From Lysobacterales bacterium (lineage in GTDB: Bacteria; Pseudomonadota; Gammaproteobacteria; Xanthomonadales; SZUA-5): DNA of 64,000 nt. Each line of letters opens with the position of its first letter. The stretch's first letter is position 1. This document shows, piece by piece, positions 1-30,140 of this stretch. The notes beneath the pieces are model-generated. The model ran no database searches, was not told the DNA's origin, and was given only the letters and a program-made list of their open reading frames with translations. Location: positions 1 through 64,000 of the forward strand of contig JALHMH010000018.1 of assembly GCA_022844165.1 (NCBI GenBank), in the 5' to 3' direction. Made by a program: the position numbers and the translations under genes.

Positions 1-1687
1 CGTGCTGAAGGCGCTGAATCGCGACCCGCTGCGCCGTTATCCGTCGGCGCAATCGCTGCGCGACGACCTCGAACGCTTCCTCGCCCACCAGCCGATCAAG
101 GCGCGACCCGACAGCGTGGGTTATCGGGTGCGCAAGTGGCTGCGCCGCAATCGCACCATGGCGGCGGTCGCAACGTTCGCCGCAATCGGCCTGCTCATCG
201 CAGCGGTGCTGGTGGTCCAGGAACGCAATCGGGCGATTCGCAACGCGCAAGTGGCCGATGCCACCAAGCGCTTCGTGCTGAAGGCATTTACCGGCGCCAA
301 TCGCTGGCAGACAAGCCAGGACATGAGCGCACGCGACCTTGCCTTGCGAGGCCTGGCCGAGGTCCAGGTCGAGCTCAAGGACCAACCCGAAGCGCGGATC
401 GAAATGTACGATACGCTTGGGCAGGTATTCGGCAGCAGTGGTCCCTTAACTGCCGCAGTGCAGGCGCGCGAGGCGCAGCTGCGCGAGATGAAGCAATTGG
501 GTAACTACTCCAAGGAAGCCCTGATCGAGGTGGAATTACGCTTGTTGCTGGCGTACGTCGCCCAGGAGAACTTCATCAAGTCGCGTGATTACGCACGCCG
601 GATCGAGGCGGAGTATGGGGATCGGCTGAACGCTTACGACCGCATGTTCATGTTGCAGCTGCAGGCGCAGGCTGCTGCTTCGCTGGGAGATTTCAAGGAC
701 TTTTCCCAGTTGTTGCCGGAACTCCTCGATCCCGCGCACCTGCAGGCAGCCGCTGCCGCAGCAAAAACGGCGCGCAGCCCGCGGCGTGCACAAGAAGCCA
801 GAACTTTCGAAAGCTGGGCACGAACCTATGTACTTCGGGTAGCGGTCCAGCAACGACACGATCGTGCGGCGGCCACGCAGGCGCTCACGACCCTGCAGAC
901 GATCACCCGCGACATCGCTCCGGACGATCTGCAGCGCGCCAACCTGGCCGCCCACCCGGTCGATGCGCTGATGCGGGTCAGTCGCGACCCGGCCCTGCTC
1001 GCACTGGCGGATCGCTCGGCGCGCTGGTCCAACGAGCAATACGGCGGGCCCGGCGCTGCGCTGGAGGCCAGGCGTTTCATGGCCGAGCAGGATGGCGATC
1101 TCGAGCTGGCGAGCCGTTATCACGAGCAACTGGAGTCGCTCGCGCAAGCGTCGGGTAGCGAGTTGGGCCCGGGGATCTGTCGAGATCTTTTTCTTCCTTC
1201 CGGTGGCCTCGCGCTCGCCCAGGGCCAACGCACCCTGGCGCGGCAGCGCTACGAAAAATCGCTGCAGTGCGCCCGCGAGTTCGAAGGCCCGGACTGGCAG
1301 TCGCCGCAAGCGCGTGCTGCGCAAGCGGGCTTGGTCTATCTGGATGTACTGGAAGGCAAGGCCGATATCAGCGCCCTGCAGCGCTTGGCGCTGGCGCAAA
1401 GGGAGCACGATGACGGCGCATGGTGGCTGAGCGCTTTCTGGCTTGCCGAGCGGTGCCTCGAAGGCAGCGACGACGCGCCTTGCCGGGCGCAAGTGCAGCA
1501 AATCGAGGACTGGCACGTCGAACGCGGCGCCCGCCGCGACGCGCGATTGTCGGCACTCTATGCGCGAGTCGGGTTGCCGGTTCCCACGCAGCCACTTTAC
1601 CCAGTGGCCGAAGCCGTACGCCTCGGCTCCATCCTGATCGCCGACGGCGAGCGCATCGTCGCGCAGCGGCGGGCGAGCAAGGGGTAA
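1..1687 (+). CDS. Membrane-anchored Ser/Thr protein kinase, C-terminal part (5' end outside window)
   Basis: Begins with a kinase C-lobe motif (LKALNRDPLRRYPSAQSLRDDLERFL..PIKARP), then KWLRRNR, a TM helix and a helical TPR-like region. Confidence 0.85.
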   Translation, partial: VLKALNRDPLRRYPSAQSLRDDLERFLAHQPIKARPDSVGYRVRKWLRRNRTMAAVATFAAIGLLIAAVLVVQERNRAIRNAQVADATKRFVLKAFTGANRWQTSQDMSARDLALRGLAEVQVELKDQPEARIEMYDTLGQVFGSSGPLTAAVQAREAQLREMKQLGNYSKEALIEVELRLLLAYVAQENFIKSRDYARRIEAEYGDRLNAYDRMFMLQLQAQAAASLGDFKDFSQLLPELLDPAHLQAAAAAAKTARSPRRAQEARTFESWARTYVLRVAVQQRHDRAAATQALTTLQTITRDIAPDDLQRANLAAHPVDALMRVSRDPALLALADRSARWSNEQYGGPGAALEARRFMAEQDGDLELASRYHEQLESLAQASGSELGPGICRDLFLPSGGLALAQGQRTLARQRYEKSLQCAREFEGPDWQSPQARAAQAGLVYLDVLEGKADISALQRLALAQREHDDGAWWLSAFWLAERCLEGSDDAPCRAQVQQIEDWHVERGARRDARLSALYARVGLPVPTQPLYPVAEAVRLGSILIADGERIVAQRRASKG

Positions 1688-1807
1688 CGCAGTCTGCTGG
1701 CGCAACGCCAGACCATTCCGCCGGATATTTCTTCGAACATCGTTAGTGCCCTGCAAGGCTCATCCGATCGGTGTCGGATGGGAATCGATCAACGCAGGGG
1801 AAGACTC

Positions 1808-3349
1808 ATGATCCGTCTCGCAATGGCCCTATTGGCTGCCACACAGTTCAACATCGCAACTGCCGCCGATAAGATCGAGCAGCAGGAACAGCTGATTTTC
1901 GACACGCAGAAGGGCACGGGACTGCCCGGTGCGCTCGATACCAGCTTTGGCACTGGCGGGCGCTTGACGATCAGCATCGATCCCTCGCCGACCCTGGAAG
2001 ACGACGCCATCATCGCTGCGCCGCGCTCGGGTGGTGGCTATCTCATCTACGGCTACTTGCCATCGACCGGCGACATCGTGATCAACGGACGCACCGAAAT
2101 CGGCGCCGTCGATACCAGTTTCGGCGTTAACGGTCGTGTGACCCACGACCGCCAATTCCTGTCGGTCGAAGCCGCCGCCATCGATAACCAGGGGCGCGTG
2201 CTGATTGTCGGCAACTCGCGCGAGTCCGGCAGCCCGAGCAGCGATTTCGATCCCTACGTGTGCCGCTTCACGGCCGGCGGTTTTCCCGACACCGCCTTCG
2301 CCAGCGCCACCGGCTGTGCGTTGTTCCCGGTCGACATCATCGCCAATGGGTTCGACTACGCCACCAGTGTCGCCACCGACGCCAGCTTCGTTTATGTGGC
2401 CGGACAAATGCAGCGCGACACCATCGACGACTACGACTTCCTGGTGATGAAGATTCGCGCATCCGATGGAACGCTGGTCACGTCTTTCGATGGCGACGGC
2501 ATGGTGTTCATTCCATTCGATATCAACGCCACCGAGCCAGGCGGCGACATCGACGCCGCGCTCGCCATCGTGCGCGACGGCGATGCCGGCCTGTACATCG
2601 CCGGTTACGCCGACAACGATGGCGACTTCGATAATGATTGGGCGATCGCCAAAATCGACATTTTCAGCGGCGCTTATGTCACCAGTTTTTGCCCCAACCA
2701 AACCGCATGTCCAGGCAGCGAAGTGCTGGCCGGACGCCGGCATCTGCCGATCATCACTACTTTCGGCGAGAACAGCGAGCAAATCCAGGCGCTGGCCTTG
2801 GCTGCGGATGGCGATCTGCTGATGGCGATCCAGCGTGGCGCGCAGGTGAGCGGCAATCCGGTCAACCAGATCGAAACGCTGAAGCTCAATCGCACCACCG
2901 GCGCGACTATCGCGGGTCAAAACGACGCACGCACATACCTTCGTTATGCCAGCGTCAGCGATATGGCCATCGACAGCACCGGCAACGTGCTGCTGAGCGG
3001 TGTCAGCAGCCAATCGTTGGGCCTCTTCGGCGCCGACCCCGGCCGCGTGATCTTCGTCACGCGCCTGACGCCCACGCTCGACGGCGACAACAGCTTCGCC
3101 ACCGCGCTCGGCGGCGGCCCGTCGCCCACCGCGCTGATCGATTTCCCACGGAATCCCAGCTCCACGCTGCTCGATCACCGCAGCAAGGAGATGGTGATCG
3201 ACGCATCCGGGCGGATCGTCGTCGCCGGCTCCCGCCTCTGGCGCCGCGACACCGCGACCAACGTGTTCGACTACGACCACGCCATTTTCCGCCTGTACGG
3301 CAGCGGCGCGCCGGCAGGGCCGAACATCTTTGCCAATGGCTTCGAATAG
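1808..3349 (+). CDS. Secreted delta-60-repeat-like beta-propeller protein with C-terminal IFANGFE
   Basis: Signal peptide MIRLAMALLAATQFNIATA; repeated LDTSFGTGG, VDTSFGVNG, LVTSFDGDG motifs; ends NIFANGFE; alternative ATG at 1778. Confidence 0.8.
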   Translation: MIRLAMALLAATQFNIATAADKIEQQEQLIFDTQKGTGLPGALDTSFGTGGRLTISIDPSPTLEDDAIIAAPRSGGGYLIYGYLPSTGDIVINGRTEIGAVDTSFGVNGRVTHDRQFLSVEAAAIDNQGRVLIVGNSRESGSPSSDFDPYVCRFTAGGFPDTAFASATGCALFPVDIIANGFDYATSVATDASFVYVAGQMQRDTIDDYDFLVMKIRASDGTLVTSFDGDGMVFIPFDINATEPGGDIDAALAIVRDGDAGLYIAGYADNDGDFDNDWAIAKIDIFSGAYVTSFCPNQTACPGSEVLAGRRHLPIITTFGENSEQIQALALAADGDLLMAIQRGAQVSGNPVNQIETLKLNRTTGATIAGQNDARTYLRYASVSDMAIDSTGNVLLSGVSSQSLGLFGADPGRVIFVTRLTPTLDGDNSFATALGGGPSPTALIDFPRNPSSTLLDHRSKEMVIDASGRIVVAGSRLWRRDTATNVFDYDHAIFRLYGSGAPAGPNIFANGFE

Positions 3350-3474: not shown

Positions 3475-3867
3475 TCAGCTCCACAGTTCCAAGCGCAGTC
3501 CCGGTACTCGCTCGAATTCGCGCGTGTTGTGAGTAACTAAGGTCGCGTCCTCGGCAAGCGCGTGCGCTGCGATGAGCATATCCATACCGCCAATGGGCAT
3601 GCCGGAGCGCTCCAGGCTGGATCGAAGCGACGCGTAGTGCGAGGCCGCGGTCAGCGGCCAATCGCGAACCGATATGCCGCCGAGGAATTTCTCAATCGTC
3701 GCGCTCAAGGCTGCGGATCCCCGCTTGACCGCGCCGAACCGCAACTCCGCCGCCACCAGCGCAGAGATTGCGATTTCATTCACCGGTATGTCCCGAAAAC
3801 GCTCAATCACCGTCCTCGGATGAGCGCGCAAGACGTAGCTGCAGATGTTGGTATCAAGCATTCTCAT
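3475..3867 (-). CDS. vapC: VapC PIN-domain toxin
   Basis: [11 protein letters not shown]...ELRFG...[38 protein letters not shown]; start overlaps the antitoxin end. Confidence 0.93.
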
Positions 3868-4111
3868 CGCGGAACCATTCGCGATCTTGCGCTGCCGCTT
3901 GCTCGCGATTCTCCAGAAAATCCGCCGGCACGGGTTCCGTGGTGGCGTAGAGATCCGACAGCCATTCGCCCAGCGTGACGGGTTTCGGCCGCAACAGCAC
4001 GCCGTTAGCAACGCGTTCTACAAACACCTCCTTGCCCTCGAACCGAAACTCCGCCGGCAAACGCACGGCTTGGCTGCGTCCATTGATGAATAGCTTTGCG
4101 GTCTGCGGCAT
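3854..4111 (-). CDS. vapB: VapB antitoxin (AbrB/MazE fold)
   Basis: [21 protein letters not shown] signature; directly upstream of the PIN toxin. Confidence 0.93.
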
Positions 4112-4294: not shown

Positions 4295-4567
4295 ATGTCT
4301 CGTCAGACCATCTTGCTGTTCATCGCGCTGGGGCTGCTGATGTCGCAGCTCGGCGCACGGTCCAGCGCCAGTTATCAGATCCCGAGACAGTCGGTCGATG
4401 CCGGCGCCGGGGCAGCCAGCAGCGCGAGCTATCAGCTGCGCGGCACGCTCGGACAGCCCGATGCCGGCGCAACGTCGAGCGCCAGCTATTCGCTGACGGG
4501 CGGTTTCCACAAGGCCGCCGTTGCCGGCCCGCAGCCGGATCCGATTTTCGCCAACGGTTTCGAATGA
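4295..4567 (+). CDS. Small secreted protein (90 aa) with three SSASY repeats and C-terminal IFANGFE
   Basis: GGAGGT RBS at about 4284; signal peptide MSRQTILLFIALGLLMSQLGA; GTLGQPDAG...YSLTGGF; ends DPIFANGFE. Confidence 0.8.
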   Translation: MSRQTILLFIALGLLMSQLGARSSASYQIPRQSVDAGAGAASSASYQLRGTLGQPDAGATSSASYSLTGGFHKAAVAGPQPDPIFANGFE

Positions 4568-4604
4568 ACACTCATCCAAACACCGCCGCATCCAGGAGTG
4601 CGCC

Positions 4605-6887
4605 ATGACTTTCCGCGTCCGTCCCTTCGTTCTTGCCATGGCGCTGGCCATGTCGAGTTTCGCTTCCGCGCAGGTGCCGATTTCCGCCGAGTTCACTTAC
4701 CAGGGTGAGCTGCGCGTCGCCGGCAGCCCGGCGAACGCCAACTTCGATATGGAATTCCGGCTCTACAACGCATTCTCTGGCGGCAGCCAGATTGGTTCTG
4801 CGGTCACCAGCCTGGGCGTGGCGGTCAGCAACGGCCTGTTTACGACGCAGCTGGACTTTGGCGCCGCGCAGTTCGCCGGCGATGCGCAGTGGCTGGAGAT
4901 CCGCATCAAGCCCTCCGGCAGCGGCGCCTTTGAGGTCCTATCGCCGCGCACCGCGCTGAGCGTATCGCCGTACGCCTGGGCCGCCCGCAATGCCCTCGGC
5001 AACTCGGTCACCGGCACCAGCATCGTTGATGGCAACGTGACCAGTATCGATATCGCCGACGGTAGCATCGCCGCCTTCGATCTGGCCGCCGGCGCCGTCA
5101 ACAGCAGCAAAATCGAAGACGGTACCGTGGGCCTCGCCGATATCGACACCGACCAGGTCCAGGGTCGCGTTTCTGGGTTTTGCCCAGCCGGATCGAGCAT
5201 CCGGGAAGTGCTCGCGAACGGCAGCGTCACCTGCGAAACCGACGATGGTGGCGGGGGCGGCGGAACCGTCACCAGCGTGGCGACTGGCGCCGGCTTGACT
5301 GGCGGGCCGATCACCACCAGCGGCACGCTCAGCATCGCGTCTGGCGGCGTGACCAGCGCGATGATCGCCGATGGTACGGTGACGAATGCCGACCTGGCAG
5401 CGAACTCGGTCAATGCCGGCAACATCGTCGATGGCACCGTGGGTTCGGCAGAGATCAACAGCGCGCAAGTGCAAACGCGCGTCAGCGGCGCGTGCGTCGT
5501 TGGCAGCGCTGTGCGGGCAATCAACGCCGACGGTACGGTGAGTTGCGAGAGCGATGACATCGGCTGGAGCCTGGGCGGCAATCTCGGCACCAATCCGGCA
5601 ACCAACTACATCGGCACCTTCGATGCCCAGCCGTTCGTGATTCGCACGCAAAACGCGCGCAGCTTGCGCATCGAGCCTAGCGCCGAGCAATTCAGTGGCG
5701 CCCCGATCACGACCAATATCATCGCTGGATCGAGCGCGAACAACGTCACCAGCGGCGTGCGCGGAGCGACCATCGCTGGTGGCGGTTTGCCGAATGGAAA
5801 CAGCGATCCGTTCTTTTCTGCGGAGGCCCCGAATCGGGTGACGGACTTGTTCGGCACCGTGGGCGGAGGGTTCGGCAACCTTGCAGGCAACGACATCGGC
5901 ACATTGACCGATTCGCGCCTTGCGACTGTCGGCGGTGGGGAAGGCAACATCGCCTCAGACAACTGGAGTACCGTGGGCGGTGGTCTGACCAACCTCGCCA
6001 GCGGCGTTACCAGCATCGTGGCAGGCGGCTTGAGAAATACGGCAGCAGGTTCGTCCAGCATGGTGCTTGGCGGCGATTTCAATTGTGCCGGTGGTGTTGG
6101 CGCCATGGCCGGCGGCTTCCGCGCTAAGGTTCGGGTGCGCGCAGGCGTGACGGCTCAGGAAATCGGAATCGGGTGCGCCGGTGTGCCCAATTCCGGCGAT
6201 GCTGACGGCGATGAAGGCAGTTTCGTGTGGGCTGATTTACAGATCGGAGACTTCGTGTCGAGTGGACCGAATCAGTTTCTGGCGCGTGCGGATGGCGGTA
6301 TCGGCTTCAATCGCGACCCCGGACCGAACGACGACTTGGTACTCAAAGCGCGCGCGGTAGCGGGCGATGCCAGCGCTGACCTCAGAATGTACACTCGCCT
6401 TGAGAAGACGGCTGCCTTCCAACTGGAAGAATCCAGCGGTTCCTTGCGGATCTCGGTACCCTCGATCGTGGGCAGCAGCCCGCGCCTGGTGGTCGAGGGA
6501 GGCAGCGGCGGCCTCGCCACACTCACCAACGGCGGCAGCTGGACCAATGCCTCTTCGCGCAGTTTCAAGGCCGGATTCCACGCCGTCGACACCTTGGACG
6601 TTCTGGCGCGCGTGGTCGATTTGCCGATCACCACCTGGAACTACATCGGCTCGGCCGAAGGCCTGCACATGGGCCCGGTAGCCGAGGACTTCAAAGCCGC
6701 ATTCGGACTGGCGGGCGATGGCAAATCCATCTCCACCGTCGATGCCGATGGCGTGGCGCTGGCAGCGATTCAAGGCCTGAACCAGAAACTCGAAGCGGAG
6801 AACGCAGCGCTGCGCAAAGAGATCGAAGCGCTGCGCGAGCTGGTGCTCACGCGTGTCGCGTCCCAACCGGCCGAGTCGGACTATTGA
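4605..6887 (+). CDS. Secreted fibre-like protein with C-terminal peptidase S74-like (intramolecular chaperone) domain
   Basis: AGGAG RBS; signal peptide MTFRVRPFVLAMALAMSSFASA; FTYQGEL N-domain; IxDGxV repeats; TVGGGxxN repeats; C-terminal SSRSFK...HMGPVAEDF...ALAAIQGL plus coiled coil. Confidence 0.82.
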   Translation: MTFRVRPFVLAMALAMSSFASAQVPISAEFTYQGELRVAGSPANANFDMEFRLYNAFSGGSQIGSAVTSLGVAVSNGLFTTQLDFGAAQFAGDAQWLEIRIKPSGSGAFEVLSPRTALSVSPYAWAARNALGNSVTGTSIVDGNVTSIDIADGSIAAFDLAAGAVNSSKIEDGTVGLADIDTDQVQGRVSGFCPAGSSIREVLANGSVTCETDDGGGGGGTVTSVATGAGLTGGPITTSGTLSIASGGVTSAMIADGTVTNADLAANSVNAGNIVDGTVGSAEINSAQVQTRVSGACVVGSAVRAINADGTVSCESDDIGWSLGGNLGTNPATNYIGTFDAQPFVIRTQNARSLRIEPSAEQFSGAPITTNIIAGSSANNVTSGVRGATIAGGGLPNGNSDPFFSAEAPNRVTDLFGTVGGGFGNLAGNDIGTLTDSRLATVGGGEGNIASDNWSTVGGGLTNLASGVTSIVAGGLRNTAAGSSSMVLGGDFNCAGGVGAMAGGFRAKVRVRAGVTAQEIGIGCAGVPNSGDADGDEGSFVWADLQIGDFVSSGPNQFLARADGGIGFNRDPGPNDDLVLKARAVAGDASADLRMYTRLEKTAAFQLEESSGSLRISVPSIVGSSPRLVVEGGSGGLATLTNGGSWTNASSRSFKAGFHAVDTLDVLARVVDLPITTWNYIGSAEGLHMGPVAEDFKAAFGLAGDGKSISTVDADGVALAAIQGLNQKLEAENAALRKEIEALRELVLTRVASQPAESDY

Positions 6888-7043: not shown

Positions 7044-8819
7044 TCACTCAAACCCGTTCGCGAACACCGAGTTACTGCTATAGCGAACATCCAGGAACGG
7101 GCGTGCACTGCCGATCGTTTCGGCGAGGCCGCGGTGGCTCAGGGCCGAGCCAGCCACCCGCCGGATTGGCGTGGTGCCGTCCGCCTGCAGCTGCTGCACC
7201 TCATCGATCGTGGTCCGCAGCTCAGCCTCCGCGGGCAAGACCGCGTCGCCGTCCTTGAAGCGCACGTTGTCGACGCCGGCATTGGTGGCGTTGAAGCTCA
7301 GCCGAAACTGGGTCAAGCCACCGGTGTGGATCGCCGCTATCCCGGACGGATCCAGATCGATCCGCAGCGCGTCGAACTCGTTGACGACCGAACCGACGAA
7401 ACAACCCACATTGCTGGCATCGGCTTCTTCGGTCGCATCGCCCGGCTCCACTTCCGGCGCGCCGAATCCGCCACCGGCAATGTCCAGTCGCGGCGCGCCG
7501 AGCGCGCCTGTAGTGAACGGATTGCTGCCGCTGCGCCCGTCCTGCAACAAGTACAGAGCGGCTGATTCAATCACGGCATCGGCCGGAATCATGCTGGTGT
7601 CGAAGGACACCATGCCGTGGACCAGTCGGCTGCCATCGTCCCCAACGATGATCGACCCGTTGCCGGTTTGGACGCCGTTGGTCCAGCCATCGAAGTTGCC
7701 GCCCTGTGAAGAGATACTCAGCGAAACCTCGCCTCGGAAGCGGGGAAAGAAGTGGGTCTCGGCCTGCACCGCGACCTTGTACCGATAGCCTTCTTCATCG
7801 AGGTGAATCGGATCGGCCGAAATGCCGAAGTTGGTGCGGAAGTTCTCGCGCAGACTCGGCCGGTTCGGCTGACCGGCTGGGAAAGGCAGATAATCCGGCG
7901 CCGACTGGCCCGGCCGCGGCAGCACGCCGGGCGCGGCCACGCCATCACCGTAGTAGTGGTGCATCTCGCCGACAGCGTGATCGAAAAACAGTCGCGTATC
8001 GGCGTTCGTCCAGCCGATCCGGCTGGCTTCCACGTCGACAATCATCGCGTTGATCTGGGCGTCGGTGACCAGATCATTGTCCGGGTTGCGGCTAAGGTCG
8101 CGCCGTTTTGGGCAGGCGTAGATGAAGCACCAAAGAGCCGATACATTGAAGTTTGGATATTCGTAGCTGGACACCAGCACATCCAGCCCCGGCCGCACCG
8201 CCAGGAAGGCCTGCGCGATGCTGTCGCTGTGGGCGAGGATACGCGCGAACAAGGCCGCTTCCGATCCGGGCACGTCCAGGTCCATGTCTTTGTACCAGCC
8301 GCCACCCGAGCGTCCCGCCAGCACATCGTTGCCCCCCAGGCTGAACACGACTGTGTCGATCGTTGGCAGGGTCTGCAACTCGCTGACCACATTGGCGATC
8401 CACGGATAGCTGGCGGTGTTGACCCACTCGCGCGCCTCACTGCCCGAGATTGCGTATTCCGGCCCGCTGTGACCCGGGCCTGGGTTCTCGCCCAGCGAAC
8501 GGCTCACTGCGAGCTTGTCGGCATGCCCGAAGCGATCGAAGATCTGGTTGTGCGTATCGTCATCCCACATGAACTGCGCCCAGCTGTCGCCAGCGATCAG
8601 TACGCGTGGCGCAGCCTGCGTGGCCGGACAAGCTCCAGCGATACGCGCGGGTTGCGCGTCGCGATCGCGCGTGCCGCTGTAGTTCCACGGGTAGGGCCCG
8701 TTCCAGCTCGAACCCTGCGTGGTGGCAGGGCCCGCAGAGCAGGCAGCCTGCGAAATCAGCATGCACAAGAGTGCCAGCGCGCCTGCGAGGGTAGTTTTTG
8801 TGTGATTCATGAGGTTCAT
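7044..8819 (-). CDS. Secreted SGNH/GDSL-family hydrolase with C-terminal beta-rich domain and VFANGFE
   Basis: Signal peptide; IAGDSW (block I), AISGS (II), SLGGND (III), DPIH (V); ends NSVFANGFE. Confidence 0.8.
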   Translation of the reverse strand: MNLMNHTKTTLAGALALLCMLISQAACSAGPATTQGSSWNGPYPWNYSGTRDRDAQPARIAGACPATQAAPRVLIAGDSWAQFMWDDDTHNQIFDRFGHADKLAVSRSLGENPGPGHSGPEYAISGSEAREWVNTASYPWIANVVSELQTLPTIDTVVFSLGGNDVLAGRSGGGWYKDMDLDVPGSEAALFARILAHSDSIAQAFLAVRPGLDVLVSSYEYPNFNVSALWCFIYACPKRRDLSRNPDNDLVTDAQINAMIVDVEASRIGWTNADTRLFFDHAVGEMHHYYGDGVAAPGVLPRPGQSAPDYLPFPAGQPNRPSLRENFRTNFGISADPIHLDEEGYRYKVAVQAETHFFPRFRGEVSLSISSQGGNFDGWTNGVQTGNGSIIVGDDGSRLVHGMVSFDTSMIPADAVIESAALYLLQDGRSGSNPFTTGALGAPRLDIAGGGFGAPEVEPGDATEEADASNVGCFVGSVVNEFDALRIDLDPSGIAAIHTGGLTQFRLSFNATNAGVDNVRFKDGDAVLPAEAELRTTIDEVQQLQADGTTPIRRVAGSALSHRGLAETIGSARPFLDVRYSSNSVFANGFE

Positions 8820-28001: not shown

Positions 28002-30140
28002 ATGCGCGCATTGGCATTGCTGTTGTTTCTCGCGCCGACCATGGTCGCCGCCCAGGCGACACCGCATCCCATCTTGTTCGTCACGCAAGTGCCGGTGCCG
28101 GTCGATTTTGCCGCCGTCGGCAGCACTTTCGCCAATCATCTGGCTGACATGGGCAGCGTCTGGCGCGGAGGCGATCTTTGGATACGCTATCCCGACGGCA
28201 GCTTGCGAAATCTGACCGCCGAGGCTGGTTTCGGCAATGCGGGTTTTCAGGGCACGGGGGCGATCGCCGTGCGCGACCCCGCAATGCATTGGGACGGCGA
28301 GCGCGCTGTGTTTTCGATGGTCGTGGGTGCACCGCCGAATCAGTTCCAGCAACTTTCGTTTCGCTGGCAAATGTATGTTGTGACGGGTTTGGGACAGGGC
28401 GAAACGGCATCGATCACGCTGGTGCCGAATCAGCCGCCGTACAACAACGTGATGCCCGCCTTTTTGTCGGACGGCAGTCTGGTGTTCTCCTCCGATCGCG
28501 CCCGCGATGGCTCGGCGCACCTGTATCCGCAGCACGACGAATACGAGTCCACCGAAACGGTTACGGGTCTTTGGCGCCTCGCGCCAGACGGCGCATTGAC
28601 CTTACTCGACCATTCGCCCTCAGGCGACTTTGATGCTTTTGTCGATAGTTTTGGGCGACTGTTGTTCACGCGCTGGGATCATCTGCAACGCGACCAACAG
28701 GCCGAAGTTCCCAGCAACCAAAACTTCGACTGGGCTTCCGAGGCAGCGAATGCCGCCACATCGGTGCCCAGCGAGGTATTTCCCGAACCGCGACTGGCTG
28801 TGGCGGGGTCGGGCGTCAACGGGCACCGTTTGAACAGTTTTTTTCCGTGGGAGCTGCGTCAGGATGGCACCCACGCCGAGTTCCTCAATCACCTGGGCCG
28901 CCACGAGCTGCAGGTGTATTTCGACCGCAGCTTTTCGAGCGACAACAACTTGCGCGAGTTCATCGCCGAGATCAGCGGTCGCACCAATCCGCGCGGCATC
29001 GAAAACATGTTCCAGATCAGCGAACACCCGAACACGCCGGGCCGCTATCTCGCCATCGACGCGCCCGAGTTCAATACCGCAGCCTCGGGGCAACTGCTGC
29101 GGTTCGATGCAGCCCCGAGCGTCAACCCCGACGATGTGGTGATCGATTATTTGACGCCGCGCAGCACCTTCGGCACAGCGCCAGCGGCCGATCACAGCGG
29201 CCACTATCGCAATCCAATTTACTTGAGCGACGGCAGCATCGTGGTCGCGCACACGAGCGAGCAGGGCGGCCTCGCCAACGTCGGCACCAATACAGCACCA
29301 CAGCCGAACTACCGCTTCCGACTCAAACGGATGGTCAATGGCGTGGGCGGCTTTTTGACGGCGGGCACGCCGTTGACCAACGGCATCAACAAGACCGTGA
29401 ATTGGTGGAGCCCAGATGTTGCGGTCAGCTACAGTGGCGAACTCTGGGAGTTGAGCCCGGTCGAAGTCCGCGCCAGAACGGTGCCGCCATTGACAAGCGA
29501 ACCGCCGCTCGCGGCGCCCGAAGCCGCCGCGTTTGCGGCTGCCGGCGTTGCACCGAGCACGTTCAAGGCCTTCTTGCGCGCACAGAATTTGGGATTGATC
29601 ACGGTGCGCAACAACACCGCACGCGATGATGCCGACCGCCAACAGCCGTTCCGTCTTCGTGTGCCCGGCGGCGTTAGTCATTTGCCCGGTACCGGTGCGA
29701 TTTACGACATACGCCATTTTCAACTCGTGCAAGGGGATCAGGTGCGGGGCATCGGTGGCGCGGCCAGCCCAGATCCAGGCCGTCGCGTCCTGGCGCGCTT
29801 CATGCACGGTCTGCCGGCAACGCTCAATCCCCCGAATCCCACCGGCCCGGCGAGCAGCGTCGGTATTTTTAGCGACGGCTCGTCCGCTTCGTTTGTGCCG
29901 ACACGTCGGGCGCTCAGTTGGCAAACCACCGATCCGGGCGGAACGCCTGTCGTCCGCGAGCGATTCTGGCTGACGCTGCAACCGGGCGAAATCCGTGCCT
30001 GCGATGGTTGCCACGGCGTCAACCGTGCCGGCCAGTCTGGACAATCGGCGGCTACCAATACGCCACAAGCGTTGATCGATTTGCTGCAGCGCTGGAGTCA
30101 GGCGAACGGCGGACTCATGTTCGCCGACAACTTCGAGTAA
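28002..30140 (+). CDS. Secreted hydrazine synthase alpha-like (propeller plus HZS_alpha-like) c-type heme protein with C-terminal MFADNFE
   Basis: Signal peptide; TolB-like VRDPAMHWDGERAVFSM and LVFSSDR; LLFTRWDH; ERFWLTLQPGEIRACDGCH (CxxCH); ends LMFADNFE. Confidence 0.75.
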   Translation: MRALALLLFLAPTMVAAQATPHPILFVTQVPVPVDFAAVGSTFANHLADMGSVWRGGDLWIRYPDGSLRNLTAEAGFGNAGFQGTGAIAVRDPAMHWDGERAVFSMVVGAPPNQFQQLSFRWQMYVVTGLGQGETASITLVPNQPPYNNVMPAFLSDGSLVFSSDRARDGSAHLYPQHDEYESTETVTGLWRLAPDGALTLLDHSPSGDFDAFVDSFGRLLFTRWDHLQRDQQAEVPSNQNFDWASEAANAATSVPSEVFPEPRLAVAGSGVNGHRLNSFFPWELRQDGTHAEFLNHLGRHELQVYFDRSFSSDNNLREFIAEISGRTNPRGIENMFQISEHPNTPGRYLAIDAPEFNTAASGQLLRFDAAPSVNPDDVVIDYLTPRSTFGTAPAADHSGHYRNPIYLSDGSIVVAHTSEQGGLANVGTNTAPQPNYRFRLKRMVNGVGGFLTAGTPLTNGINKTVNWWSPDVAVSYSGELWELSPVEVRARTVPPLTSEPPLAAPEAAAFAAAGVAPSTFKAFLRAQNLGLITVRNNTARDDADRQQPFRLRVPGGVSHLPGTGAIYDIRHFQLVQGDQVRGIGGAASPDPGRRVLARFMHGLPATLNPPNPTGPASSVGIFSDGSSASFVPTRRALSWQTTDPGGTPVVRERFWLTLQPGEIRACDGCHGVNRAGQSGQSAATNTPQALIDLLQRWSQANGGLMFADNFE

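Follow-up and report, generated by a model that had tools for sequence, protein, structure and literature searches.

A small exported protein as the probable surface tether of an S74-type fibre in a Lysobacterales bacterium

How could an exported fibre that carries no C-terminal tag of its own be held at the cell surface? Two adjacent genes raise this question in a stretch of 64,000 nucleotides (the window) taken from contig C18 (JALHMH010000018.1) of a Lysobacterales genome of 4.68 Mb in 59 contigs. One encodes a small exported protein of 90 amino acids (aa) whose C-terminus is a "GFE" tail; the other encodes an exported fibre of 760 aa. An earlier sequence-only reading had placed the small gene 37 bp upstream of the fibre gene and had proposed that the small protein supplies the tag in trans by binding the N-terminal FTYQGEL domain of the fibre. 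Translations and the intergenic spacer confirm this layout (Table 1), and co-occurrence, adjacency and a predicted interface support the proposal computationally. We consider it fairly probable that the pair forms a two-gene cell-surface fibre module in which the untagged fibre would be addressed and tethered in trans by its small partner.

If the two proteins work together, their families should be found in the same genomes, as the sequence-only reading expected. This expectation was borne out. Among 199 genomes of the order, the N-terminal domain of the fibre (N-domain) was found in 125 and the small family in 120; both are present in 119 genomes, the N-domain alone in 6, the small family alone in 1 and neither in 73 (presence lists compared by hand; related genomes are not independent). 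The match extends to taxonomic families with a sporadic distribution (f2, 1 of 25 genomes; f8, 3 of 24; f12, 7 of 24), in which the small family and the N-domain are confined to an identical set of 11 genomes. The small family is present in only 2 of 200 other genomes of the phylum, both from one genus and both N-domain positive, with the genes about 330 nt apart; a weak N-domain match alone was found in 2 further genomes, and 196 had neither family. In these two small-positive genomes, whose genus is a distant one, the three-repeat domain forms the N-terminus of giant proteins, with open frames of 1253-2443 aa, encoded beside the N-domain genes (G259:C85, G259:C211, G377:C144).

Adjacency was scored at the best small-gene match of the first 40 listed genomes among the 120 positives, a sample that shares 3 contigs with the set of 8 loci described below. 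The small gene and a fibre or N-domain gene are direct neighbours in 36 of these 40 loci. A co-oriented N-domain begins less than 500 nt downstream in 25 of them, and in 8 the co-oriented fibre gene comes first; in 1 case an upstream fibre runs off the end of the contig (recognised by eye), and the genes are divergent in 2. One gene separates the partners in 1 more locus. A fibre also stands beside the small gene in all 8 loci from 4 Lysobacterales metagenome-assembled genomes, with the N-domain directly downstream in 7 and directly upstream in L008. One 40.6-kb contig (L002 and L004; also L090) bears a tandem array of alternating small-adaptor and fibre genes with at least 5 fibres, together with pairs of the second type described next.

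The same pairing recurs within the genome of the window, where both S74 fibres adjoin an exported, GFE-tailed protein of about 90 aa and all 3 intact N-domain genes adjoin a small exported protein with short repeats. The second S74 module, which we call type B, lies on contig C51 (about 759-2703, minus strand) and encodes a 556-aa fibre with a canonical SDRNLK motif and an N-domain that starts WTYRGTL. Its small partner, encoded one base downstream of the fibre gene, is exported, about 90 aa long, has three G-R-F repeats and ends in DIFRDGFE; type-B pairs are found in the opposite gene order in L002 and L008. The third intact N-domain gene (contig C4, 262 aa, without S74) is followed by a gene for an exported protein of 205 aa whose beginning weakly matches the small family. 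Elsewhere on C4 (72908-73342, minus strand), an isolated N-domain fragment, limited to model positions 59-106, immediately precedes a GFE-tailed gene of 1427 aa and may be the remnant of a lost fibre gene.

We also inspected metagenome loci from a distant subfamily whose members carry, behind the small domain, an additional domain with the ending FFRL..P. An N-domain or S74 match was present in 42 of 80 such loci, many of which are very short. Where at least 400 nt of upstream sequence is available, an S74 domain ends within 500 nt upstream in 20 of 67 loci; where at least 500 nt of downstream sequence is available, an N-domain starts within 500 nt in 6 of 49. Among loci with long flanks, 13 of 17 have a fibre domain, and the pairing thus recurs in unrelated lineages.

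Does the pairing extend to physical contact? We modelled the mature small protein (one copy, residues 22-90) together with three N-domains (residues 23-135), using separate alignments and this 3:1 stoichiometry only. An interface between one adaptor and three fibre N-domains was predicted, as the sequence-only reading had anticipated, with a complex score of 0.64 (runs, 0.58, 0.64 and 0.69), against 0.00 for the best of 3 controls. Of 80 solved complexes, 58 attain the score mark used, as do 2 of 110 mismatched pairs; these rates apply only roughly to the present set-up, in which we supplied the alignments and used three N-domain copies. Between runs, at least 84% of contacts coincide, and the partner reaches a predicted local distance difference test (pLDDT) value of at least 63. 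In the model, the contacts of lowest error join each repeat of the small protein to a different fibre copy: repeat 1 (residues 27-29) to residues 35-38 of copy 3, repeat 2 (46-49) to residues 35-38 of copy 1 and repeat 3 (66-67) to residues 36-37 of copy 2. The predicted interface comprises residues 30-40, 75-80, 97-101 and 110-123 of each fibre copy and residues 22-74 of the small protein, and the linker and tail of the latter (75-90) remain free. The interface takes in six of the seven invariant N-domain columns (Y32, G34, L36, G77, F79 and P122). Since neither partner has a solved relative, the model is unlikely to have merely reproduced a known structure. The small protein modelled alone with AlphaFold2 (AF2) yields no confident fold (pLDDT 66.9; predicted template-modelling score [pTM] 0.25), as expected for a partner that folds on binding. 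Overall, the complex model supports, short of demonstrating, binding between the small protein and the N-domain.

The anatomy of the small protein is compatible with this arrangement. Its core contains three S-A-S-Y-x-[IL] strand motifs, at Y27, Y46 and Y65, together with GQPDAG and GGF, and alignments of relatives define the family core as three Y-x-[IL] strand motifs with Gly-rich turns between them. A word-indexed search returned 59 relatives of 49-158 aa, and a profile search over 1.84 billion representatives returned 13,238 representative clusters at E≤1e-3 and 2,161 at E≤1e-10. The family is very widespread and uncatalogued: no Pfam family matches the small protein, a PDB profile search with the family gave nothing at E≤1, the ESM Atlas holds unnamed clusters only (for the small protein and the fibre alike), and no description of the family, or of its pairing with such fibres, was found in the open-access literature. 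Its sole library match is a partial one to NCBIfam NF058579, the Candidate Phyla Radiation (CPR) pilus protein PamT, which spans model positions 9-78 of 241; ten diverse members match the same model with 15-34 bits, always at positions of about 3-83. At 28.3 bits against a cut-off of 240, and with partial coverage, the small protein was rejected as a member of the PamT family.

What differs among family members is the C-terminal end. Of 205 proteins, 125 end in a GFE-type tail, 13 in a YLP-like end and 4 in an FYRL-type end, and the remaining ends include dockerin (PF00404), IPTL-CTERM (TIGR04174; 21.5 bits against a cut-off of 20.5), a transmembrane (TM) helix and larger domains. The YLP-like label was assigned by a regular expression, and at E≤0.01 the proteins P0275, P0281 and P0057 had no match among the NCBIfam YLP models. 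The swap of C-terminal anchors between lineages, for which the sequence-only reading had suggested looking, is therefore seen (GFE tail, dockerin, IPTL-CTERM, TM helix and YLP-like end), and the small protein is of the "choice-of-anchor" type, that is, one domain with C-terminal sorting or anchoring signals that differ by lineage. In addition, 12 family members contain two or three copies of the core.

In the genome of the window, the anchor candidate is the GFE tail. The pattern [DNEGS]GFE ends 68 of 44,225 stop-to-stop open reading frames (ORFs) of at least 60 aa, against counts of 0-2 for the same pattern at internal offsets. A stricter seven-residue form at the extreme C-terminus (hydrophobic-[FL]-x-[DNS]-G-F-E) is found in 58 of these ORFs, and at internal offsets in none. 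With its signal-peptide-like start and its IFANGFE end, the small protein falls among the GFE-tailed exoproteins. A tail variant with N in place of G is present in a 712-aa exported protein of the window (28002-30140, plus strand), which ends ...MFADNFE. If the docking model is right, it would provide a handle on the function of the GFE tail.

The fibre starts with a signal-peptide-like segment, read from the sequence, and has FTYQGEL at residues 30-36. Peptidase_S74 is the only Pfam family found in it at E≤0.1, and scores above the Pfam cut-off (27.4 bits against 22; 29.6 bits in a six-frame search). SDxxxK is the motif of the Ser...Lys dyad of S74 (PMC10769870, in the sections available), and the fibre retains its spacing as S650-S-R-S-F-K655, which fits the motif with D replaced by S. 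The identification of the fibre C-terminus as an S74 chaperone followed by a coiled coil is thus upheld by the Pfam match and by a heptad-like stretch. Between the two ends, the body combines tail-fibre repeats and UspA1-head repeats, both of which are types known from trimers. In the nearest relative (L001), the small protein is 97% identical to that of the window, the fibre 77% and the N-domain (residues 1-140) 100%; these identities suggest that the body and tip of the fibre diverge fast while the dock and the adaptor stay constant.

The N-domain is itself the head of a large and varied family. A search with residues 1-140 gave 115 relatives, in records from Lysobacterales-like bacteria, Planctomycetota, Verrucomicrobiota, Binatia and Fimbriimonadales, and at least 6,858 of 8,000 longer proteins scored match the N-domain profile. 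It is a conserved beta-sandwich of 113-126 aa that follows a signal-peptide-like start; the AF2 model is confident (pLDDT 81; pTM 0.72), and a fold comparison with the PDB gave no match at E≤0.001, the best TM-scores (0.38-0.51) all being to generic Ig-like folds. The parts behind it include S74, collagen, BNR/sortilin, LVIVD, YadA head, FGE-type, alpha-galactosidase and VgrG-like domains, and a single genome of the order sample may have up to 23 N-domain matches, with varied tips that do or do not include S74. Among the proteins headed by this domain are some that are not fibres, namely FGE/sulfatase-modifying-type, alpha-galactosidase, lysophospholipase-like and VgrG-like-plus-S74 proteins (P0352, P0358, P0328, P0387, P0409), and this range points to docking as a general function.

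A real GFE tail is absent from all 115 N-domain proteins (one regular-expression match sits inside a coiled coil), and all of them are untagged, including those without detected S74. The sequence-only reading had explained the untagged fibre by arguing that a protein that sheds its S74 C-terminus cannot keep a tag there. This argument is reasonable and too narrow, because N-domain proteins in which no S74 was detected are untagged as well. An untagged C-terminus appears to fit a more general polarity, in which the C-terminus would be the distal working tip.

In the mechanism that we propose, the fibre would be exported by Sec and would most likely trimerise with the help of its C-terminal S74 chaperone, which would then cut itself off and expose the distal tip. 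One small protein would clasp the three N-terminal beta-sandwich domains of the fibre trimer, each of its repeats adding a beta-strand beside the FTYQGEL edge strand of one subunit. The free linker and tail would carry the surface-sorting or anchoring signal of the lineage, presumably the GFE tail here, and elsewhere a dockerin, an IPTL-CTERM, a membrane helix or a YLP-like end.

Several observations weigh against this proposal. The complex score is a measure of model confidence obtained with a set-up unlike that of the tool's calibration, and the support for a 3:1 complex comes from a model of that one stoichiometry, built with the pair of the window. The pairing is not universal: in the stretches examined, the small gene stands without a fibre in 4 of the 17 long metagenome loci, as an orphan among housekeeping genes, and in 3 of the 40 order loci, one of them on a 2.4-kb contig, and 6 of the 199 genomes have N-domain genes and no detected small gene. 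Copies of the N-domain exceed small-family matches in many genomes (for example, 23 versus 14 in G020); a single adaptor may serve more than one fibre, or else some partners escaped detection. In a set of 321 proteins, none joined the small domain naturally to the N-domain, and the non-fibre proteins that the N-domain heads are ones in which trimer binding is not obvious. Finally, the GFE tail that we read as an anchor could equally be an export signal.

The main rival explanation accepts the contact and disputes its duration. The small protein might bind N-domains as an assembly or export factor (a trimerisation clamp, a periplasmic holdase or an export pilot) and not as a lasting anchor, in which case its tail would serve only its own routing or turnover. 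The genomic and interface evidence is equal for a transient and a permanent partner, and the shortage of small-family matches relative to N-domain matches in many genomes also suits such a factor. Phage tail-fibre assembly genes follow their fibre genes, and the small gene does so in about one-quarter of the sampled order loci. Against this, the small domain is consistently joined to surface anchors (dockerin, IPTL-CTERM, TM helix), which are apt for a tether and needless for a transient chaperone, and a folding chaperone in cis is already provided by S74, as described in the available part of PMC10769870. We regard the assembly factor as rather unlikely, though it deserves more weight than any of the other alternatives. 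It is improbable that the two are merely co-regulated surface or secreted proteins without contact, the small one being an independent matrix or adhesive peptide. Orphan small genes among housekeeping genes (L035, L067, L076, L078, L123) and tandem copies of the small domain within large multidomain proteins (P0184, P0276) would suit such a peptide, whereas the near-perfect match of presence and absence over 199 genomes, down to the same 11 genomes in the sporadic families, the recurrence of adjacency in distant lineages and the coincidence of conserved residues of both partners with the predicted interface all argue for contact.

The remaining alternatives borrow from pili and phages. A role for the small protein in a pilus-type polymer, as its PamT-like tip or donor-strand subunit and with the fibre as an accessory, is suggested by the partial NF058579 matches (28.3 bits for P0001) and by the tail-fibre-like gene conserved near the pam operon, as reported in the accessible part of a preprint (PMC13278184). 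We consider this very improbable given a score far under the cut-off, the restriction of the match to the N-terminal third of the model, the absence of an Ig-like domain from the small protein and the absence of pilin, chaperone or usher-like genes near the pair in the window. The idea that the pair is a remnant of a prophage or tailocin, consisting of a tail fibre and its assembly protein, draws on the PHROG tail-fibre matches and the S74 domain and is the least credible of all. Both proteins bear apparent Sec-type signal peptides, no phage genes were found within about 10 kb of the pair, and a genome may contain as many N-domain matches as noted above. Neither the small protein nor the N-domain had a tblastn match in 50,697 phage records, and none of 53 pattern matches in 2.9 million viral contigs was a relative of the small family. 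The N-domain has one relative in the viral contigs, in a 949-aa open frame (L129, 3435-6281) at the edge of a 49.6-kb contig; this DNA is probably host flank, since an alanyl-tRNA-synthetase-like ORF adjoins it at the contig edge. The view that the fibre is cellular is supported by these searches as well as by its neighbours.

Those neighbours comprise a VapBC-type PIN/MazE pair, a GGDEF protein, a LytTR regulator with a kinase, a hydrolase, malate synthase and isocitrate lyase. The VapBC-type toxin-antitoxin genes, on the opposite strand, immediately precede the small gene (PIN domain, 3475-3879; MazE-like antitoxin, 3854-4111; both minus). Two further genes for exported proteins flank the module, at 1778-3349 (plus) and 7044-8819 (minus), and both products are GFE-tailed: one is a delta-60-repeat protein (TIGR02608; 75.1 bits, slightly below the cut-off of 76.5), and the other resembles GDSL/DNRLRE proteins, with weak matches. 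A promoter and terminator scan found nothing decisive, with no promoter-like sites and 5 terminator-like sites against 2.6 expected. The features of the two genes are collected in Table 1.

Table 1. Coordinates in the window of the small gene, the fibre gene and their predicted parts
Feature	Coordinates	Strand	Evidence
Small exported protein gene (adaptor candidate), 90 aa	4295..4567, stop included	+	Translation; GGAGG ribosome-binding site 7 nt before ATG; family evidence
Signal-peptide-like N-terminus of small protein, residues 1-21	4295..4357	+	Inspection of the sequence; relatives align with A-Q/S-S boundary
Three-repeat core, residues 22-74	4358..4516	+	Conserved columns; whole of 22-74 in predicted interface
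Pro/Ala-rich linker, residues 75-83	4517..4543	+	Sequence; outside predicted interface
C-terminal IFANGFE tail, residues 84-90	4544..4564	+	Genome-wide "GFE" tag; stop directly after
Spacer, 37 bp, with AGGAG of fibre gene	4568..4604	+	AGGAG 8 nt before fibre ATG; no terminator-like site inside
Exported fibre gene, 760 aa	4605..6887, stop included	+	Translation; Pfam, PHROG and PDB sequence matches
Conserved N-terminal beta-sandwich, residues 23-135 (predicted docking site)	4671..5009	+	Family; AF2 model
Phage-tail-fibre-like repeats, residues ~133-313, paired cysteines	5001..5543	+	phrog_13518 (E 1e-10); phrog_892 tail fiber protein (E 5e-10)
YadA/UspA1-head-like Gly-rich repeats, residues 411-510	5835..6134	+	PDB sequence match 3pr7 (UspA1 head), E 3.9e-7
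Peptidase_S74 intramolecular chaperone, residues 650-700, Ser650/Lys655	6552..6707	+	Pfam PF13884
Coiled-coil-like C-terminal stretch, residues ~720-748	6762..6848	+	Heptad-like by reading; most relatives end alike

Fibres of this kind are already known; the small partner and the proposed three-in-one docking are new. Phage-like S74 fibres of cellular origin have been described in the predator Bdellovibrio, and a specific candidate partner for such fibres emerges here. According to the accessible sections of Caulton et al. 2024, Bdellovibrio bacteriovorus has 21 exported mosaic adhesive trimeric (MAT) fibres, 13 of which end in S74 with SDxxxK; their conserved N-terminal domain has no PDB homologue, and its partner "awaits further study" (PMC10769870). 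The available part of a 2026 review adds nothing on that partner (PMC13689555). Like the S74 subgroup of MAT fibres (e.g., Bd3182), as those sections present it, the fibre of the window is exported, chromosomal and multi-paralogue, and in both the N-domain lacks a close PDB fold; the two N-domains were compared by anatomy alone. The differences are that the S74 motif is SDxxxK in MAT fibres, in the same sections, and SSxxxK here, that Bdellovibrio is a predator whereas nothing points to predation in the Lysobacterales host of the present fibre, and that a partner gene is identified here while those sections describe none for MAT fibres. The name Bdellovibrio was not seen among the matches listed (120 of at least 6,858 N-domain matches). 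By analogy, the fibre may be called MAT-like, short of a proven MAT member, and the small protein a candidate for the missing cell-side anchor of MAT fibres.

Phage tail fibres and tailspikes, such as the K1F endosialidase and the T5 L-shaped fibre cited in the accessible text of PMC10769870, share S74 (PF13884) and tail-fibre-like repeats with the fibre of the window, and the same polarity is expected of both, with the N-terminus proximal and the C-terminal tip distal. Unlike them, the present fibre has a signal-peptide-like start and lies outside a phage context, searches of phage records found neither its N-domain nor its partner, and its attachment would be to a cell-surface adaptor and not to a virion baseplate.

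Trimeric autotransporter adhesins (TAAs) of the YadA/UspA1 type are defined by a C-terminal beta-barrel. Residues 411-510 of the fibre match the UspA1 head repeats, and relatives of the N-domain are named "trimeric autotransporter adhesin" in one source. No C-terminal beta-barrel anchor domain was found in the fibre in the Pfam search (E≤0.1), and membership in the TAAs was rejected on this ground; anchoring here would instead be N-terminal and in trans.

PamT is the proposed tip pilin of the CPR Pam pilus, and a tail-fibre-like gene is conserved near pam operons, according to the available part of the preprint (PMC13278184). Its N-terminal 80 or so model positions match the three-repeat core of the small protein, whereas here there is neither the truncated Ig-like domain nor a pam operon.

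A parallel in role may be cohesin-dockerin, a small anchor module with a matching docking domain. As in that system and in the NCBIfam "choice-of-anchor" proteins, the small module has interchangeable anchors and the docking domain heads many cargoes; unlike cohesin-dockerin, the folds and sequences are unrelated, and the predicted binding is by beta-strand addition with three docking domains per adaptor. The model thereby offers a concrete candidate binding mode, in which three repeats would meet three subunits. Going further, and more tentatively than for the module itself, the three-repeat small domain and the N-domain of about 115 aa could possibly represent a general, undescribed two-part docking system of bacterial surfaces, in which one pseudo-threefold adaptor, anchored as each lineage requires, would hold three copies of any N-domain cargo, fibre or enzyme. 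The adaptor would then be the missing MAT anchor, and PamT might serve as a fibre dock, either instead of acting as a pilus tip or in addition to it. Should the proposed docking of three repeats to three subunits hold, it would account for the surface addressing of untagged fibres and enzymes, for the lineage-specific anchors of the small protein and for the exchange of binding heads with the anchor left unchanged.

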